A DNA stretch of 64,000 bases from Alphaproteobacteria bacterium. Its GTDB lineage: Bacteria > Pseudomonadota > Alphaproteobacteria > CAAHEQ01 > UBA3637. Positions 1-34,847 of this stretch are shown one piece after another. The stretch is taken from positions 3,333 to 67,332 of the forward strand of contig JAFPYW010000034.1 in the NCBI GenBank assembly GCA_017394405.1, written 5' to 3'. Under the pieces are notes generated by a model that was given only the letters and a program-made list of their open reading frames with translations, searched no databases and had not been told where the DNA came from. The position numbers and the translations under genes are program-made. Within the stretch, counting starts at the first letter, position 1. Every line of letters starts with the position of its first letter.

Positions 1-494
1 TATTCTTTGGATAATTCTTGCATAATATGATCACGCGTTACCTTGGCAATAATGCTGGCAGCAGCAATGGATAAGCTGAGCGAATCACCCTTTATTAAAC
101 ATTGACAAGGAATTTCCCACTTGGGTAGCCGATTGCCATCAATCAAAGCAAAATCAGCGCGGTGTCCTTTTTGTTCGGCGTCTTGTAAAGAACGACGCAT
201 CGCCAAAAAAGTGGCCTGTAAAATATTGAGTTGATCAATTTCTTCAGCGCTGGCTTGACCAATACCAATATAAGCCCCTGAATTCATAATTTGAGGAAAT
301 AATAATTCCCGTTTTGTCGCTGATAATTTTTTTGAATCGTTGATGGCATTGGCTAATTTTGAATCAATTTGAAAATTTGGCCAACAAACACAAGCGGCAA
401 CCACCGGTCCGCACCAAGGTCCTCGTCCCGCTTCGTCTATACCAAAGATAAGCCCTTTAGATGGACATGATTTTTCATAATTAAAATCAGGCAT
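1..494 (-). CDS. rnhB: Ribonuclease HII, N-terminal ~164 codons (3' end runs off the window)
   Basis: Reverse-strand translation from the ATG at 494 reads MPDFNYEKSCPSKGLIFGIDEAGRGPWCGPVVAA... GIDEAGRGP is the RNase HII metal-site signature. The gene is not in the ORF track because the window edge truncates it. Confidence 0.85.
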   Translation of the reverse strand, partial: MPDFNYEKSCPSKGLIFGIDEAGRGPWCGPVVAACVCWPNFQIDSKLANAINDSKKLSATKRELLFPQIMNSGAYIGIGQASAEEIDQLNILQATFLAMRRSLQDAEQKGHRADFALIDGNRLPKWEIPCQCLIKGDSLSLSIAAASIIAKVTRDHIMQELSKE

Positions 495-7830: not shown

Positions 7831-9105
7831 CTATATCATCTGTGGTGGCGTATCAGACGGTGTATTTTGTTGTTCGGTTGGTTGTGTCGGAGCCGTCGGT
7901 GCGGTTGGCGCCATTGGCGCCGCCGGAGTTGTTGTTGGAGCTGGCTGTGGCATTGCGGATTGCGCTTGCTTTTTGGCTTCCTCTTCACGCAGATCCAAAC
8001 CAATCGCTTCTGTAATAGAATTCAGATGACGCTTGCTCAAAATATCACCCAATTCCTTGTCAATTTTATGCAAGATGCCGGGGCCTTCAAAAATAAGACT
8101 GGCTTCGTCAATAGCAATCAATGAGGCGCCAGCGGCAATATGGGCAAAAGCCGTTGCCCCGTCAAACACACCTCCAGTTGCGATAATCGGCATATGGTCC
8201 TTTAATTGTGGATACAGGTGACGAATGAGTTCAGACACATATTGGTGTGTTGGCTTGCCAATCAACTGCCCAGCCATTTGGTGTTCCTTTGCTCCTTGAA
8301 TTCTTAAACGTGTATTCTTAGCCAAGGACATCGGTCCAGCCACAACAACGCCATCTGCACCACTGCCTAATAACACTTGAGAAACCAACGGGATTTCCAT
8401 CGTATTTATATCTAATGGAATTTTAATAAAGATTTTCGGCGGATGAATTGGTGCTGCCCGTTGAACTGTTTCTTTAACAGCCCGCACAATCGGCAAAATA
8501 GTAGAAGCATCCACGACCAATACACACAATTCCGCATTAGGATGTGAAAAGTCTAATGTCAAAAAGTCACAATAAGGCGCTGCCCGTTGAGCCATCAGCA
8601 CAAATTCATCCAAGTATGAAAAATGCCGGCCACGTTTGATGTTTGATTCCTCACTTTCCGCTGGAATAGCAATATCCAAACCCACAAAGTGTGGCAAATA
8701 CCGACGCTTCACGAACCATGGCAACATTTTTTCCAAACCTGGGTTGCGATAGCCATTACATTGACTAATAATTGCCCGATCTGCCTTGAAGAAAAACTTT
8801 TCTTGGGAGGGTAATTCTTTTTCCAATGTATAAGGGCCGAATGTACCGAAACTATACCCCATTTGCATCAAAGCATCTAATGTATTACCCCGTTTATCAA
8901 CACCATCGCCCAATCCGACAGGTGTAGGGAAATGACGACCGAACAAATCAATAGCCAAACGTGTGTCAGAGCAATGCCCCGACGGGAATGATCCGTCACG
9001 CAATCCCCAATAAAGCAATTTATGGGCCCAACGAATATTCACGTGTTGAACAATCCACCAAAAGATAATAAAGAGTAAGTTGCCGGTATTATGTGGTTTT
9101 TCCAT
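7831..9105 (-). CDS. Dihydroorotate-dehydrogenase-fold protein (divergent class-2 PyrD-like) with N-terminal membrane segment and Pro/Ala/Thr-rich C-terminal tail
   Basis: PyrD-like blocks are present: FPTPVGLGDGVDKRGNTLDALMQMGY, PIIATGGVFDG and AGASLIAI. The start is placed at MEKPHNTG (ATG at 9105), which has GAAGGAG upstream. Several canonical catalytic motifs look altered (see findings). Confidence 0.65.
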   Translation of the reverse strand: MEKPHNTGNLLFIIFWWIVQHVNIRWAHKLLYWGLRDGSFPSGHCSDTRLAIDLFGRHFPTPVGLGDGVDKRGNTLDALMQMGYSFGTFGPYTLEKELPSQEKFFFKADRAIISQCNGYRNPGLEKMLPWFVKRRYLPHFVGLDIAIPAESEESNIKRGRHFSYLDEFVLMAQRAAPYCDFLTLDFSHPNAELCVLVVDASTILPIVRAVKETVQRAAPIHPPKIFIKIPLDINTMEIPLVSQVLLGSGADGVVVAGPMSLAKNTRLRIQGAKEHQMAGQLIGKPTHQYVSELIRHLYPQLKDHMPIIATGGVFDGATAFAHIAAGASLIAIDEASLIFEGPGILHKIDKELGDILSKRHLNSITEAIGLDLREEEAKKQAQSAMPQPAPTTTPAAPMAPTAPTAPTQPTEQQNTPSDTPPQMI

Positions 9106-16794: not shown

Positions 16795-17172
16795 TTAGAA
16801 TCCTTTCACAACCACTTTGTTGGCGGCGGCCTTTTTTTGCAACTGAGTAATGCCTTTTTTGATGGCTTTTTCTTGTTTGGCGGAATCTTGTTTTTCGGAA
16901 CAGATATCCGTTTGAAAATACTGACATGGACGGCCCAAATAAGCCACATTTGCGGATTTATCATTCACGGCGGCGGTGCGTTGTTCGGCATCCATTTGTT
17001 CTTTTTCAACATAAATGGTCAAGGGTTCGCCCGGCTGATTCACGCGATACCAACCAGATAAAACATACGGCGGCGTATTCAGCGTTTGAAAGCGAAAATC
17101 GGCCTTATCCAACGGGTTGTGATAGGCACATCCGCCTAAAACCAATAAAGAAATAATACATAATTTTTTCAT
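16795..17172 (-). CDS. Lipoprotein, function unknown
   Basis: 125 aa with the lipobox MKKLCIISLLVLGGC. Its stop codon abuts the ELM1 start, indicating an operon. Confidence 0.6.
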   Translation of the reverse strand: MKKLCIISLLVLGGCAYHNPLDKADFRFQTLNTPPYVLSGWYRVNQPGEPLTIYVEKEQMDAEQRTAAVNDKSANVAYLGRPCQYFQTDICSEKQDSAKQEKAIKKGITQLQKKAAANKVVVKGF

Positions 17173-17265: not shown

Positions 17266-17331
17266 ATGCCAGGATGCGGATGTGGTTGTGGCACCAAAAA
17301 AGGTGGCAAACCCAAAGAAACTAAAAAGTAA
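17266..17331 (+). CDS. Micro-ORF encoding MPGCGCGCGTKKGGKPKETKK (21 aa)
   Basis: AAAGGAG lies 7 nt upstream of the ATG. The ORF is flanked by a promoter-like element and a strong hairpin terminator. It is too short for the ORF track. Confidence 0.45.
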   Translation: MPGCGCGCGTKKGGKPKETKK

Positions 17332-17333
17332 TC

Positions 17334-17366
17334 AAAAACCCCGACCAACCGGCCGGGGTTTGTTGT
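17334..17366. terminator. Bidirectional intrinsic terminator between the micro-ORF and the giant Cys-rich gene
   Basis: AACCCCGACC-aacc-GGCCGGGGTT hairpin with one A/C mismatch. An A-run lies on the left and a T-rich tract (tttgttgt) on the right. Confidence 0.6.
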
Positions 17367-17377
17367 AACAAAACAGC

Positions 17378-20300
17378 CTATTTACACAAGGCATGCCCAC
17401 CAGTATTTGACGGGCCCAAGTGTCTGTTGAGATTACCCATGGTGAAATGAATATACATCATCTTGGAACTATCATAAGGCGTTTGTGTCCAAGACCAATC
17501 ATATCCGTTAGCATCATTTTTACCCAATGCTTTTCTCAAAGCAATCAGGGTTGGACTGTAATTTTCATTTACATATTCCTCAGATTCGGACTTGATAGTG
17601 GTTGCGTCAGACCAATAACCATTCCATGTTGATTGAGCACATGATTTGCCCTGAGCACAACAATAATAAGACGTCGGATTTGTTTGTAATGTATTGCCAT
17701 TGTAGCAACCAACATCTGTTGATTCAATCAAGACCTTTCCTTTTGCAGCGCACCAATTGGCTGCGGACCAATAGTTCATCATATCATCACTTTTAATAAC
17801 GGTGCCCAATCCACTGATGGATGCACTGGCAGAATCACCCAAACTTTGACAGGTACCTTCTTCGGCAGATGTCATTTTGCAATACTCACCATCACCACAT
17901 TGGGTGTTTTTGGTACATGTTACTACGGCCTTAACACATTCGTATGTCGCACAACAACCGGTTTCTGTATTCGTTGCTGTACAGGTTAAATCATATCCGC
18001 TGTCGCAATATGTTGGACCTGTTGGGCCGGTGAAGGTGCTGTCTTTGTCAACACATTGATAATTCTCTGCGAATTCCGTTTGTGTAATGGTGCAAACAAC
18101 GCTCTTTTTCGTCAATTTATCACAATGTGCTGCACCGTCTGATATCGTCATACAAAAACCACTGTCGTAAATTTGGTTTGTGTATTTGCAAGTACATTCG
18201 TTGCTGATACAAATGGCATTTTCATCATCGTTGGAACATACCGTTCCATCGGTTTTGCCCGTGCAATCCGTTATGTCAGATTGGCTTTCTGGTATGACAA
18301 AGCCTTGTCCTGCGCCCGTTGAACTGTCAATACCAAGCAAACAACCCGTACCAGATTGTAAACATTGATACACATATTCATTAAGGAATATAGAATCATA
18401 CGGGATACAGACCTTTGCCGTTTGTTTTGTGTCCGTCATATACACATCTATTTCCATCAATTGGGTACCGCTGCCATAAGTGGCTGTGTCGCAAACAGTA
18501 GCGATACATGTGTTGTTATATTCTTTTATACAATCCCCATTTGATAAACAGGAGTATTCAATACAGCAGGTGCTATCCGAATCGTAACTGGTACATTTTG
18601 GCCAACCGCAACTGGGCTTTTCCAATGGCAGGATATTGTAGTAAGGCGAATCTTTCGCCACACAGCCATTATGTATATATGGCTCACCACTACTTTCGCA
18701 TTCAACAAATTTGTGTGTCAATTTATTGCAGTCCGCTGTATCACCAGACATGGTTTGACATACCTTTACACCAAAATTTTCTGGAGTATTTTGGGTTAAA
18801 TCATAACGTTGCTCTGTCCATTTACAAGTACATTCACCCGCGTAACAAATGAGGTCAGGATCGGCAGTATTGGAACAACTTATTCCATCCGCTTTACCCG
18901 TACAATCGGCCGCATAATCTACGCAGTGAAAAGCGCCTTGCTCAAAAACAACGGTTTGATTGGATTCACAACAAACTGGCTCAATAGCCAAACCATCCAT
19001 TATCGGCATTGGAACTTTTGTGCCATCGCAACAAATTTCTTTCGTTCCAGTTGCTGATTCATAAGATGTACAGTTCTGAGTGGTACCACCCGGCATTTTG
19101 CACAAAGCATGACCACCTTCGTTATAAGGGCTGAGGTGTGTATTCAAGTTGCCATAAGTGAAGTGGACATAAAGTGTTTTGGTGGTACTGTATGCCGTGC
19201 TGGTCCAAGCCCAATCATATCCGTTGGCATCGTTTTTGCCTAATTGTTTTCTTAAAGCAACCAAAATCGGGCTGTAATTTTCATTTACTGTTGCTTCATA
19301 TTCGGGCTTGATGGTTGTTGCATCTTGCCAGTAACCAGCGCTATTCCAAGATCCACAAGATTTACCCGATGCACAACAATAGGCATTACTGGCCTGATTT
19401 GTTACCAAGGTGCTTGTACCACTTTGATAACAACCGATATCTCCGGCTTCAACCAAAGATCCGCCTTGTGCTTCACACCAATTGGCGGCGGCCCATTGAC
19501 TCATCATATCATCACTCTTGATCACGGTTCCTAGATCGGTAATCGTGGCTTGTTCATAGGCGCCCAAAGGTTGACATGACGCATTGGTAATCGTGCTGCC
19601 TTCACCGGTCATCTTACAATATTCACCTTGAGCACAATCTGCATTGCTTTGGCATCCCCATGCGCATTCGTATGTGGCACAACATTCATTGCCGCCAACA
19701 GAGGCAGATTCGGCGCATTGTAATGTGCCATCACAATTTTCATAGTTCGTTGATCCAGTAAAGGTGCTGTCTTTGGCAGCGCAGATGTAGTTTGGTTCCA
19801 ACGTTGTTGTATTGACGCTACAAATAACTGGCTTTTCCGTCAATCTGTTGCATCTTGGCGTATCTGCGATATTTTCACAGGTATAAGTTGCCATATCAAA
19901 GGATTGATCCGTGTACTTACAATTGCATGTTTGGTCTATACAAATTGCATTTTCATCCGAGTCGGAACAACTGGTTCCATCTGCCTTGCCTGTACAGTCA
20001 GCTAAAACGGTCGGATCCCTTTCCATCAAACACAAAGCGTGTCCGCCTTCGTTATGACGTGGCAAGAATGTGTTCACATTACCATAAGTGAAGTAGATAT
20101 AAAGGGTTTTGGCACCATATTCTGTGGCCGTCCAAGACCAATCGTAACCACCACTATCGCCCTTTCCAAGCACTCTGCGCAATTGGATTAAAATTGGGCT
20201 GTAATTTGCATTTACCGTTTCTACGTTTTCGGGTTTGATGGTGGTTGGATCACTCCACAAATCCTTCCAAGACGCGCACGATTTGCCCGAGGCACAACAG

Positions 20301-21205
20301 TACGCACTGCTTTCTTGATCTGTTACCAAAGTGTTCGTGCCGCTCACATAACAACCAAGGTCTGATACTTCAACCAATGCGACACCTTGTGCTGCACACC
20401 AATTGGCGGCGGCCCAATAACTCATCATTTCATCGCTCTTGCGCACATCGCCCAAGCCGGAAATGGTGGCATCCGCATAAGCGCCCAGACTTTGACATGT
20501 ACCGGTGGTCGCGTTGCCGTTTTCACCAATCATCTTGCAATATTCGCCATTGCCACAATCAGCATTAGAGGTGCAACTGACATCGTGTTTGCAAACGCCG
20601 TCTTTTTCCACATAATCAGTAGGACATTTACAACCACCCATTCCATCGGCAACGTGGGTTGCTTCACATCCGCAAGCCCCAGGTGTTGTTGTGTCTGTAC
20701 ATATTTCTTCATCGGTTGCTGGTGCTGGTGGTTGTGGCGTAGGCTGATATCCAGGTTGCACATCAATACATTCGGTTTGTCCAGCATCCGGTTGATAAGT
20801 ATTTTCCGGACAAATTGTTTGTGTAGCACTGCCCGCATTGGGTACATAATAACCAGGTTGTGCTTGTGTGCACGATTCGGCCCCTGCTGCCGCATAAGTT
20901 CCGGCCGCACATAACACACAATGATCTGTCGCTAACACACGTCCCGCTTTACAACGCCAAACTCCGGCGATATATTCGGCCTCTGGATCGTTGGACAAAT
21001 CTGGACCATCGTTAATAATGAATTCCCCTGAATGGCCATCTGCGTGGCGGTGAATACCAAAAGAACTTACACCAGGGTTGTGGCGTTTGTAATAGTTGGA
21101 AGAACTTCCACTATGCCCACCCAATGCCCATGCGGAGTTTGTGCCTGCCACTGAAAGCAATAACAAACTAACGAAAGACAATGCTTGAAATATGTTGTGT
21201 GTCAT
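17378..21205 (-). CDS. Giant secreted cysteine-rich modular protein (1,275 aa): ephrin-receptor/TNFR-like Cys repeats plus 3x lectin/DUF1566-like modules plus 3x small Cys-knot modules
   Basis: Signal peptide MTHNIFQALSFVSLLLLSVAGTNSAWA. AAGGAGGG SD lies upstream of the ATG at 21205. Internal repeats are detailed under the repeat features and findings. Confidence 0.9.
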   Translation of the reverse strand: MTHNIFQALSFVSLLLLSVAGTNSAWALGGHSGSSSNYYKRHNPGVSSFGIHRHADGHSGEFIINDGPDLSNDPEAEYIAGVWRCKAGRVLATDHCVLCAAGTYAAAGAESCTQAQPGYYVPNAGSATQTICPENTYQPDAGQTECIDVQPGYQPTPQPPAPATDEEICTDTTTPGACGCEATHVADGMGGCKCPTDYVEKDGVCKHDVSCTSNADCGNGEYCKMIGENGNATTGTCQSLGAYADATISGLGDVRKSDEMMSYWAAANWCAAQGVALVEVSDLGCYVSGTNTLVTDQESSAYCCASGKSCASWKDLWSDPTTIKPENVETVNANYSPILIQLRRVLGKGDSGGYDWSWTATEYGAKTLYIYFTYGNVNTFLPRHNEGGHALCLMERDPTVLADCTGKADGTSCSDSDENAICIDQTCNCKYTDQSFDMATYTCENIADTPRCNRLTEKPVICSVNTTTLEPNYICAAKDSTFTGSTNYENCDGTLQCAESASVGGNECCATYECAWGCQSNADCAQGEYCKMTGEGSTITNASCQPLGAYEQATITDLGTVIKSDDMMSQWAAANWCEAQGGSLVEAGDIGCYQSGTSTLVTNQASNAYCCASGKSCGSWNSAGYWQDATTIKPEYEATVNENYSPILVALRKQLGKNDANGYDWAWTSTAYSTTKTLYVHFTYGNLNTHLSPYNEGGHALCKMPGGTTQNCTSYESATGTKEICCDGTKVPMPIMDGLAIEPVCCESNQTVVFEQGAFHCVDYAADCTGKADGISCSNTADPDLICYAGECTCKWTEQRYDLTQNTPENFGVKVCQTMSGDTADCNKLTHKFVECESSGEPYIHNGCVAKDSPYYNILPLEKPSCGWPKCTSYDSDSTCCIEYSCLSNGDCIKEYNNTCIATVCDTATYGSGTQLMEIDVYMTDTKQTAKVCIPYDSIFLNEYVYQCLQSGTGCLLGIDSSTGAGQGFVIPESQSDITDCTGKTDGTVCSNDDENAICISNECTCKYTNQIYDSGFCMTISDGAAHCDKLTKKSVVCTITQTEFAENYQCVDKDSTFTGPTGPTYCDSGYDLTCTATNTETGCCATYECVKAVVTCTKNTQCGDGEYCKMTSAEEGTCQSLGDSASASISGLGTVIKSDDMMNYWSAANWCAAKGKVLIESTDVGCYNGNTLQTNPTSYYCCAQGKSCAQSTWNGYWSDATTIKSESEEYVNENYSPTLIALRKALGKNDANGYDWSWTQTPYDSSKMMYIHFTMGNLNRHLGPSNTGGHALCK
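17381..17920 (-). repeat. Intragenic coding repeat A3 (aa 1096-1275) of the giant protein
   Basis: CTKNTQCGDGEYCKM...SDDMMNYWSAANWCAAKGKVLIESTDVGCY...YCCAQGKSC...NYSPTLIALRKALGKNDANGYDWSWT...GGHALCK. Clearly related to A1/A2 at both protein and DNA level. Confidence 0.85.
19100..19657 (-). repeat. Intragenic coding repeat A2 (aa 517-702)
   Basis: GCQSNADCAQGEYCKM...SDDMMSQWAAANWCEAQGGSLVEAGDIGCY...YCCASGKSC...NYSPILVALRKQLGKNDANGYDWAWT...GGHALCK. Confidence 0.85.
20030..20581 (-). repeat. Intragenic coding repeat A1 (aa 209-392)
   Basis: SCTSNADCGNGEYCKM...SDEMMSYWAAANWCAAQGVALVEVSDLGCY...YCCASGKSC...NYSPILIQLRRVLGKGDSGGYDWSWT...GGHALC. Confidence 0.85.
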
Positions 21206-21254
21206 AAACCCTCCTTGATTTTAAGTAATTGTACTCTCAAAAAAAACAATTTGC

Positions 21255-21510: not shown

Positions 21511-21726
21511 GGTGTCTTTACTCCTTGTTAGTTTTGCCTTATCATCGGCCCAAATTCGACAGTTCCGTTGGGCCCTTAAAAAGAAAACTTTATAAAAAAC
21601 CATAGCGTCTTTTGTCGAAGACATAAAAAGTATAAGATGAATAAAAATAAATAGCAAGAGATTTTATAAAAGATTTTTTGCTTGCTTTTTTGCCCGAAGA
21701 TAATTAGTGTAAACTCAGGAGGGTGC

Positions 21727-22467
21727 ATGAAAAAATTTTTGAAAATATTTTTTTGTTTTGTACTGATTGGCATCGTTTGCATAGCCATGGCAAAAAGTTA
21801 TCACAATGTGGATAACTATGTAAAAAATGCTCCAGCGGTGGCGTCTGAAAATGATTTGAAACGTGTCGTGCGGTATTTGACATCCGAGTTCAATTCTGAC
21901 GAAGATAAGGCGCGAGCAATTTATGCGTGGATTGTTTATAATATAGATTATGATGATTATAAATATAAAAGGTGGATTGAAAATCATCAAAAGAGTCGTC
22001 AAAAGGAAGTCCCAACAGTAGATGTGATTGAAAAAACACATGCGGGGATTTGTGGGGAGATTTCCGAGTTGTATGTTAAAATGGCTCAGTATGCAAACTT
22101 AAAGGCGGAAGTTATACATGGCATTGCGGTAACAGCTGGGGCTCGTATTAACAAAGATAATATGGATGAGTTTGAACATGCATGGGTGGCCGTTAAAATT
22201 GATCGCGAATGGGAATATATAGATCCCACATGGGCCATACCAGAAAAGGTTTTTACTGACGTTCGTACAGATGGTGCATATCGTCGAGAGTTGCAGAATC
22301 GTGTTTATAAAGCCGGAAAAATCCAACACAATAATCGTTCTGTGTCAAATGATTGGTTTATGACGGATAAAGAAGATATGATAAAAACACACTTTCCGAA
22401 TGATGAAAGATGGCAATTACAGCGTCGCCACAGAACGCTCAATCAATTTTTGAGGCAATTTAGATGA
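21727..22467 (+). CDS. Secreted transglutaminase-like cysteine-protease-fold protein
   Basis: Start MKKFLKIFFCFVLIGIVCIAMA (signal peptide) with AGGAGGG upstream. The Cys-His-Asp core pattern is present: HAGICGEISELY ... EHAWVAVKI ... YIDPTW. Confidence 0.75.
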   Translation: MKKFLKIFFCFVLIGIVCIAMAKSYHNVDNYVKNAPAVASENDLKRVVRYLTSEFNSDEDKARAIYAWIVYNIDYDDYKYKRWIENHQKSRQKEVPTVDVIEKTHAGICGEISELYVKMAQYANLKAEVIHGIAVTAGARINKDNMDEFEHAWVAVKIDREWEYIDPTWAIPEKVFTDVRTDGAYRRELQNRVYKAGKIQHNNRSVSNDWFMTDKEDMIKTHFPNDERWQLQRRHRTLNQFLRQFR

Positions 22468-34105: not shown

Positions 34106-34140
34106 ATAAAAAAACAGGAAGAAGACTTCCTGTTTTTTTG
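34106..34140. terminator. Bidirectional intrinsic terminator
   Basis: A7-ACAGGAAG-aaga-CTTCCTGT-T7 between the convergent merR-like gene and the H1-like gene. Confidence 0.75.
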
Positions 34141-34157
34141 TTTTCAAAGCATCTCGC

Positions 34158-34847
34158 TTATTTTTTCTTGGCCTTTTTGGCTGCCTTTTTAACTGGCGCT
34201 TTCTTCGCTGCCTTTTTAGCCGGCGCTTTCTTAGCGGGAACTTTCTTCACCGCTTTTTTAGCTGGGGCTTTTTTAGCCGGTGCTTTCTTCGCGGGAGCTT
34301 TTTTCACCGCTTTTTTGGCTGGAGCTTTTTTGGCAGGAGCCTTTTTAGCAGCTTTTTTAGCTGGTGCTTTTTTGGCTGGCGCCTTTTTAACAGGGGCCTT
34401 CTTGGCTGGTGCTTTTTTAGCAGGAACTTTTTTCACCACTTTCTTGGCAGGAGCCTTTTTAGCTGGAGCTTTCTTAGCGGGAGTTTTTTTCGCTGCTTTC
34501 TTAGCCGGAGCCTTTTTGGCCGGTGCTTTTTTGGCTAATTGCTTTGCTGCTTTTTTAACGAGAACTTTCTTCACAGGCGCCTTCGGGGCCGCTGCGGCCT
34601 TCACAACCACTTTGGCTTTTGGCTTTGTTGCCTTGGCCTTTGGTTTGGCTTGGACTTTTGGTTTGGAAACAGCTTTGACAACAGTTTTCACCGCTTTTTT
34701 AGCAACCTTCTTTGGTGCTTTTACAGCAAATAACTGCTCACAGGCCTTGATCCAACATTCCTTGTCCTTGCCTTCAGGACGACCCGCTTGTTCCCAGATA
34801 TAATAGGCAGCAACGCGGATGTTTTCTTCATTGATTTCGTGTGTCAT
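34158..34847 (-). CDS. DUF2934 domain protein with histone-H1-like Lys/Ala/Pro repeat tail
   Basis: The N-terminus [32 protein letters not shown] matches the DUF2934 pattern. It is followed by ~125 aa of [10 protein letters not shown] repeats. The plus-strand ORF 34138-34803 (FLAGAF repeats) is its antisense shadow. Confidence 0.8.
34161..34541 (-). repeat. Coding tandem repeat ([10 protein letters not shown] units; 15-nt-based periodicity)
   Basis: Visible reiteration of gctggNgcttttttNgc units on the plus strand, which translate to (A/V)[12 protein letters not shown] on the minus strand. Confidence 0.8.

Follow-up and report, generated by a model that had tools for sequence, protein, structure and literature searches.

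Gene and module organisation

The DNA analysed here, in the following called the window, is a 64-kb stretch of contig JAFPYW010000034.1 (assembly GCA_017394405.1) from an Alphaproteobacteria bacterium. Its longest open reading frame (ORF; Table 1) codes for a modular protein of 1,275 amino acids (aa). This protein is the subject of the present report, together with its three copies of a domain, named A, for which a C-type-lectin-like fold is predicted. The rest of the window consists of ordinary chromosomal genes. The protein contains 96 cysteines, a share of 7.5%, and is identical to the NCBI entry 'MAG: hypothetical protein II942_02335 [Alphaproteobacteria bacterium]', MAG being a metagenome-assembled genome.

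The module borders were set by a self-comparison, with segments of the protein searched against the whole chain by BLASTP. The three A modules claimed in the initial annotation were recovered at aa 206-392, 518-703 and 1092-1275, with mutual identities of 58-67% and E-values from 1e-30 to 1e-52. Three B modules were found as well (aa 401-480, 767-853 and 978-1056; 33-49% identical). Their number agreed with the initial description, whereas the length of about 85 aa did not. In an alignment of the B regions with their downstream sequences, each unit extends by about another 35 aa, up to a conserved CC-x2-Y-x-C motif, and thus comprises about 120 aa.

Directly after B2, the sequence SNGDCIKEYNNTC is similar to the Cys knot with which an A module opens. 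The match of the A hidden Markov model (HMM) on aa 887-974 was non-significant. This region is interpreted as a degenerate A module, probably the vestige of a fourth A start. Read from the order of the modules, the underlying plan appears to be signal peptide, leader, Ephrin-type repeat, L1 and A1, followed by three B-A pairs of which the middle one has the degenerate A. An extra CC-type linker, L3, stands before B2. The number of cysteines is even in every module (listed in chain order in Table 1), which fits disulfides within the modules in an oxidising compartment.

A repeat scan of the window found the repeated DNA copies to be 63-84% identical and only within the gene. The duplication is therefore old and real. 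This agrees with the earlier view that the diverged copies are neither a recent duplication nor an assembly artefact.

Table 1. Features of the gene, modules of the encoded protein and loci of related prepilin-like proteins. Positions refer to the window unless a locus is named.
Feature	Residues	Cys	Position	Strand	Basis and remarks
Complete coding sequence	1,275 aa	96	17378..21205	(-)	
Shine-Dalgarno sequence AAGGAGGG (AAGGAGG)			21209..21216	(-)	read directly; 3-nt TTT spacer to ATG
Sec-type signal peptide, cleavage motif AWA↓LGG	1-27		21125..21205	(-)	sequence heuristics
Cys-free post-signal leader, GGHSGSSSNYYKRH-PGVSSFGIHRH...	28-84		20954..21124	(-)	no Pfam match
Ephrin_rec_like (PF07699) Cys repeat region	85-168	6	20702..20953	(-)	Pfam and homology
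Cys-rich linker L1	169-205	6	20591..20701	(-)	also in P0002 and P0007
A1	206-395	10	20021..20590	(-)	BLASTP and model; N-terminal Cys-knot hairpins, then predicted C-type-lectin-like core
B1 with CC-x2-Y-x-C extension	396-517	14	19655..20020	(-)	BLASTP, alignment
A2	518-703	10	19097..19654	(-)	BLASTP, A-HMM
Cys-rich linker L3 (CC...CC type)	704-763	6	18917..19096	(-)	matches P0002 aa 1387-1439
B2 with extension	764-886	14	18548..18916	(-)	BLASTP, alignment
Unique region	887-974	6	18284..18547	(-)	opens with A-like Cys knot SNGDCIKEYNNTC
B3 with extension	975-1091	14	17933..18283	(-)	BLASTP, alignment
A3	1092-1275	10	17381..17932	(-)	BLASTP and model; C-terminal end ...GGHALCK, like most relatives
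Hairpin terminator CCCCGGCC-GGTT-GGTCGGGG			17334..17361	.	read directly; A and T runs on both sides; 3' of the stop codon
Prepilin-like A protein			L002:2059-4113		
Prepilin-like A protein			L003:3585-4601		
Prepilin-like A protein			L011:500-1756	(-)	
Prepilin-like A protein			L017:5014-6168		

Sequence-family searches

The full-length protein had zero matches in Pfam even at E <= 10, the Ephrin-type repeat being missed as well, and obtained only a sub-threshold Cys-repeat match in NCBIfam. Scanned alone, aa 80-168 matched Ephrin_rec_like (PF07699) in three stretches, with an E-value of 7e-8 and 32.6 bits versus a gathering score of 23.1. Residues 97-153 are 42-52% identical to repeats of six PF07699-annotated proteins (P0003-P0006, P0008 and P0009), two of which originate from the protist Carpediemonas membranifera. 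These two results bear out the initial assignment of the N-terminal Cys repeat as ephrin-receptor/GCC2_GCC3-like. The eukaryote mimicry that was proposed along with it would lie in this one short repeat only.

Scanned singly against Pfam, the leader, the B modules, L3 and the unique region had no match, and database searches with the leader gave none either. The A modules A1-A3 had no match to Lectin_C (PF00059) or DUF1566 (PF07603) even at E <= 10. Among 121 relatives scanned out of the 214 described below, Lectin_C, DUF1566 and FGE-sulfatase had no match at E <= 0.01. Outside of the A domain, these relatives gave only scattered EGF-type matches. A regular-expression search for the calcium- and sugar-binding motifs EPN/QPD and WND found none in A1, A2 and A3.

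Several weaker resemblances were rejected. Dickkopf_N, Myxo_Cys_RPT and Lustrin_cystein were considered for the Cys knot of the A modules. All scored below their cut-offs and were treated as a generic similarity in Cys spacing; the sub-threshold Dickkopf_N-like matches were confined to the first 30 residues of the A modules. Matches of the protein and of the A profiles to sequences in the PDB were ascribed to chance; they concerned 'YYCA...W' segments of antibody heavy-chain variable domains or a helicase.

Predicted fold of the A module

An AlphaFold model of A3 based on 46 family sequences reached a predicted local distance difference test score (pLDDT) of 94.5 and a predicted template-modelling score of 0.88, with all five models at 93 or above. 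For A1, a 7-sequence alignment gave a pLDDT of 90.1, with the five models disagreeing. The Cys knot of the A3 model forms two hairpins (residues 18-32), which precede two strands (36-50). W-x-x-A-x-N-W-C lies on the helix that comes next (56-65). This helix is separated by a Cys-rich insert of about 50 residues from a kinked pair of helices (117-138), and four strands (148-185) then lead to the C-terminal Cys. In the model, this order of elements is that of a C-type-lectin-like domain. The Cys of the NWC motif and the Cys of the C-terminal ALC motif are invariant in the 46 family sequences. Both sit where the canonical disulfide from the helix to the last strand would lie, and they may pair.

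A Foldseek search with the A3 model against the PDB returned lectin folds for all of the top-50 matches, including animal C-type lectins, intimin, formylglycine-generating enzyme (FGE) and Mtd. None had E <= 0.001. The A1 model gave the same picture. The best PDB match of A3 was the C-terminal domain of Bd2740, with a probability of 0.92-0.93, a target-normalised template-modelling (TM) score of 0.57-0.60 and a root-mean-square deviation (rmsd) of 4.7-6.0 Å. The target-normalised TM scores of the A3 matches were at most 0.60. Matches in BFVD, a database of viral models, were mainly C-type-lectin-like, DUF1566 and DUF6273 proteins, likewise with none at E <= 0.001.

The model is confident, the PDB top-50 comprise lectin folds only and the scores are weak. 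The assignment of the A module to the C-type-lectin fold class is probably right. The initial description as lectin- or DUF1566-like is supported only at the level of the predicted fold, by weak Foldseek matches, but not as membership of the Lectin_C or DUF1566 families, to which the HMMs gave no match.

The lectin-fold class also contains enzymes, and FGE, EgtB and OvsA were among the structural matches of the A modules. That the A modules are enzymes of this kind, such as FGE or EgtB, is very unlikely. These matches had the lowest target-normalised TM scores (about 0.2), and FGE-sulfatase was found neither in the A modules nor in the 121 relatives. A domain that occurs in triplicate and caps Cys-rich or pilin-like proteins does not have the architecture of an enzyme.

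The A-domain family and its N-termini

An exhaustive search with the A profile among 1.84 billion cluster representatives retrieved 214 proteins at E <= 1e-3, of which 97 also reached E <= 1e-10. By this profile, the A module defines a family that is unclassified and has no fewer than 214 cluster representatives. The domain combination of the window protein, first noted as undescribed, proved so in the searches of Pfam, NCBIfam and PDB sequences, but A modules are also encoded by other genes. Most relatives have a length of 200-600 aa, a Cys content of about 6.6% and one A domain; only eight proteins have two or more. Of the 25 proteins in which the domain is complete, 22 have it ending no more than 6 aa before the C-terminus. 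Among all proteins retrieved, B modules were present only in the window protein and P0002.

The N-termini of 157 proteins were compared, comprising the A-profile matches and the homologues of the full protein, among them P0007. Two types recur. The leader type, AF↓GGGG...Y-K/R...GVDAIGVH, is common to 45 of the 157 and includes the window protein with a local version (arrows mark the predicted cleavage position). It consists of a Sec signal peptide, AF↓GGGG directly after it, a basic, Ser-rich (K/R-rich) stretch and then GVDAIGVH. P0007 combines the leader with Ephrin repeats and has no A domain. Where the others have AF↓GG, a few relatives show FSC↓GG, a sequence resembling a lipobox.

The second type is prepilin-like. 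The motif G↓RSMVEMLGVLAxxGVLS, with Glu at position +5, was found in 28 of the 157 proteins, one of them with 4,335 aa, and these proteins carry a full or half A domain towards the C-terminal side. The prepilin-like N-termini point to an extracellular display of the A domain. P0016 (NCBI MBP5534775.1), the prepilin-like protein of 4,335 aa, has 13 matched stretches. Pilus or secretion operons were sought beside the pilin-like relatives; the neighbours were housekeeping genes.

The window protein itself starts with MTHNIFQALSFVSLLLLSVAGTNSAWA↓LGG. The signal peptide claimed at first is supported by its sequence features: it holds the sole hydrophobic segment of the chain and ends in the AWA↓LGG junction. 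Pattern searches of the protein found neither a lipobox nor a prepilin motif; the type IV pilin signature, G↓(F/M/R)xxxE with a hydrophobic helix, is absent from it.

A degenerate DNA motif for WW[AS]A[DEN]NWCKAQG located 15 loci in species-representative genomes. All 15 are in MAGs of uncultured rumen or gut Alphaproteobacteria, six in one MAG and three in another. As the motif scan sees close matches only, the A domain may occur more widely. A search for related loci with the 7-sequence alignment found no relatives in the species-representative genomes, and the window encodes no other member of the A family. To our knowledge, MAGs are the only source of information on this kind of gut and rumen Alphaproteobacteria.

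Expression signals and genomic neighbourhood

The initial annotation gave the gene its own Shine-Dalgarno sequence and a bidirectional terminator, and both were read in the DNA, as AAGGAGG and as the hairpin at 17334..17361. The hairpin serves the large gene and a convergent small ORF. It was not among the matches of a consensus terminator scan because its stem has one mismatch. The upstream cspA gene has a terminator-like hairpin of its own. The convergent ORF (17266-17331, plus strand) is tiny, encodes MPGCGCGCGTKKGGKPKETKK, has a GGAG Shine-Dalgarno sequence of its own and uses the bidirectional terminator of the large gene. The core of its peptide, GCGCGCGTKKGGKPKE(T/S)KK, is conserved at the corresponding site of the syntenic locus L001.

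Neighbours of the large gene are cspA, a small lipoprotein gene, an ELM1-like gene, a transglutaminase-like gene, a response regulator gene and trcR. Secretion, chaperone or modification genes were not found adjacent to it, in line with the initial annotation.

The only close full-length relative, P0002 with 1,749 aa, is encoded at the same genomic position in another assembly (locus L001). There, cspA lies upstream, a 121-aa lipoprotein and the ELM1-like gene downstream, and the transglutaminase-like, response-regulator and TrcR genes beyond. P0002 has four A modules and a divergent fifth, one full and two partial B modules. The locus is conserved between the window gene and P0002; the module count is not. 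Such a difference in module count is typical of fast-evolving surface proteins.

The divergent A-like module of P0002 (aa ~1150-1300; …ATNWCASIGKRLLTKAEM…SYWIADS…GGVVCV) is absent from the window protein. It had no match to DUF1566 (PF07603) at E <= 1. A search with this module, meant as a bridge to DUF1566, retrieved only four short unannotated metagenomic proteins.

This syntenic ortholog bears on the origin of the gene. That the gene stems from eukaryotic contamination, was recently acquired from a protist or is a mis-assembled repeat is extremely unlikely, even though the Ephrin-type repeat is most similar to protist and metagenomic repeats. The gene stands on one contig with typical alphaproteobacterial genes on both sides and has a Shine-Dalgarno sequence and a terminator. 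Its G+C content is close to that of the window (44.5% vs 41.7%). A diverged ortholog occupies the same locus in another assembly, and the repeat copies share only 63-84% of their DNA sequence. Synteny and copy divergence effectively refute this explanation.

Other genes of the window were noted. A 125-aa protein encoded at 16795-17172 (minus strand) has the lipobox LLVLGGC↓AYHN and no Pfam match; its gene is directly upstream of the ELM1-like gene and abuts it. Its counterpart in L001 is located at 8632-8997. A transglutaminase-core protein is encoded near the large gene at 21682-22467 (plus strand), divergent from cspA, and this arrangement is kept in the syntenic locus. A tandem array at 34152-34565 has spacings of 15 and 27 nt and 17 overlapping copies of a 129-nt reference. 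It is located within two overlapping ORFs, 34138-34803 (plus strand) and 34158-34847 (minus strand); the plus-strand ORF had no Pfam match.

Function and export

The cautiously favoured reading of the protein is that of an exported, multivalent, calcium-independent lectin-fold adhesin. For disulfide formation, passage through the outer membrane, binding and its target, we infer the following course. After Sec export, the protein would fold in the periplasm, braced by disulfides, into an elongated modular molecule. The folded protein may then cross the outer membrane by a type II secretion-like route. This is the natural route for folded, disulfide-bonded proteins, as for Lcl of Legionella. The three A modules would be the binding units, each with a Cys-knot hairpin and a calcium-independent head with a C-type-lectin fold. 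Rigid spacing would be provided by the Ephrin-type repeat, the B modules and the Cys-rich linkers, keeping the three heads at a distance from one another. Such an arrangement would enable a multivalent attachment to a surface ligand in gut or rumen, presented by the host, a protist or another microbe.

Several observations speak against this adhesin. Sequence profiles connect the A modules neither to Lectin_C or DUF1566 nor to a solved structure. The best structural E-value was 0.024, the query-normalised TM score was about 0.3 and most structural alignments had a large rmsd. Glycan binding is not indicated, since the EPN/QPD and WND motifs are absent. The pilin assignment in the relatives is based on the motif, the pilin HMM scores being below every curated cut-off, and the prepilin-like genes lie among housekeeping genes (recA, gyrB, dnaN, rpsD), not in pilus operons. 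An outer-membrane anchor, an autotransporter barrel, a sorting signal or a secretion gene was found neither in the protein nor adjacent to its gene.

This last observation makes a periplasmic role the main rival. The protein would stay in the periplasm as a structural or scaffolding protein of the cell envelope, with its modules acting inside the envelope. A Sec signal peptide as the only recognisable targeting signal, with none for translocation or anchoring at the outer membrane and no secretion genes nearby, fits this role. So does the conservation of the locus in two species, among housekeeping genes and by the ELM1-like gene and the small lipoprotein gene. The lipobox-like FSC↓GG of a few relatives suggests an N-terminal tethering to the membrane. 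A periplasmic role is nevertheless unlikely: relatives fuse the A domain to prepilin-like N-termini, and the closest structural matches are adhesion modules. A module number that varies between orthologs and the many paralogs per genome fit surface or interaction proteins better.

The ligand of a secreted protein may also be a protein or a component of the bacterial envelope rather than a host glycan, as in the pairs of intimin with Tir and of Mtd with pertactin. Besides the missing sugar motifs, which Lcl lacks likewise, the best-matching calcium-independent lectin folds (Mtd, intimin and the snake-venom-like Bd2740) bind proteins or targets associated with lipopolysaccharide. On the other hand, SPL-1 and Lcl are calcium-independent lectin folds that still bind carbohydrates, and none of the data separates the classes of ligands. 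A non-glycan ligand is conceivable, though on the whole rather improbable.

If the adhesin reading is extended to the family, the A domain, the leader and the prepilin-type fusions may form an undescribed surface-protein toolkit, apparently restricted to uncultured gut and rumen Alphaproteobacteria, for the attachment to eukaryotes, either host or protist. This extension is tentative and somewhat doubtful. The lectin-fold head would be presented on Cys-rich stalks, exported in dependence on the dedicated leader, or on filaments similar to type IV pili. Versions with several heads, such as the window protein, would be few.

New here is an unclassified family of Cys-braced domains with a predicted lectin fold and a narrow lineage distribution. 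It has two alternative N-terminal export modules and includes a three-headed architecture with an otherwise unseen B module. This lineage-specific, disulfide-rich family with many paralogs would be a concrete candidate for an attachment or recognition system of these bacteria. Pfam has no model for the A, B and leader modules, which leaves a gap in the domain databases. As the A module folds confidently in silico, it is suited for expression and ligand screening and for a domain description. The finding overturns no principle.

Comparison with known systems

It is well established that bacterial and phage fibres can bear adhesin heads with a lectin fold. Intimin, phage Mtd, Legionella Lcl and the fibre tip Bd2740 all make use of this fold. 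The A modules share the predicted order of elements with canonical C-type lectins and with the lectin-like domains of intimin and invasin, which dominate the Foldseek lists. Their invariant Cys residues, in the first helix and at the C-terminus, are placed as in the canonical disulfide of C-type lectins and may form such a pair. Unlike Lectin_C domains, they lack an HMM match and the EPN/QPD and WND motifs and contain large extra elements.

The N-terminal part resembles proteins with Ephrin_rec_like/GCC2_GCC3 repeats (PF07699), for instance surface proteins of protists; aa 85-168 pass the gathering score when scanned alone. The matched PF07699 proteins have tens of repeats versus about two in the window protein, the rest of which is unrelated to them.

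The variable proteins of diversity-generating retroelements of the Mtd type have a C-terminal lectin-fold domain at the chain end, as the window protein has with A3, and Mtd was among the structural matches. As a target of such a retroelement the gene was rejected: the 64-kb window contains no template-repeat copy of its 3' end, reverse-transcriptase genes not having been searched for specifically.

The DUF1566 head of Legionella Lcl is lectin-like and lacks the classical sugar motifs; the protein folds before its export by the type II secretion system, is surface-bound and binds host glycosaminoglycans (PMC11162425). Both Lcl and the window protein carry a lectin-like head at the C-terminus of a stalk, and calcium and sugar motifs are absent from both. 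Phage DUF1566 proteins were among the A3 matches, the best with a probability of 0.63 and a target-normalised TM score of 0.54. In contrast to Lcl, PF07603 matched neither the A modules (E <= 10) nor the 121 relatives (E <= 0.01). Disulfides are absent from the C-terminal domain of Lcl, while 10 cysteines are present in each A module. The stalk of Lcl consists of collagen repeats, that of the window protein of Cys-rich modules.

Bd2740 is the calcium-independent lectin-fold tip of an adhesive fibre of the predator Bdellovibrio (PMC10769870). This mosaic adhesive trimer fibre tip of Bdellovibrio bacteriovorus (PDB 8oks) is the best structural match to A3, although the two are only 9-12% identical in sequence, at a Foldseek E-value of about 0.09. 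Compared with Bd2740, each A module has two additional elements: a Cys-knot subdomain and, between the two main helices, an insertion of about 50 residues. Bd2740 forms a trimeric fibre with one tip and is not Cys-rich. The window protein has three heads in one chain, set apart by Cys-rich spacers.

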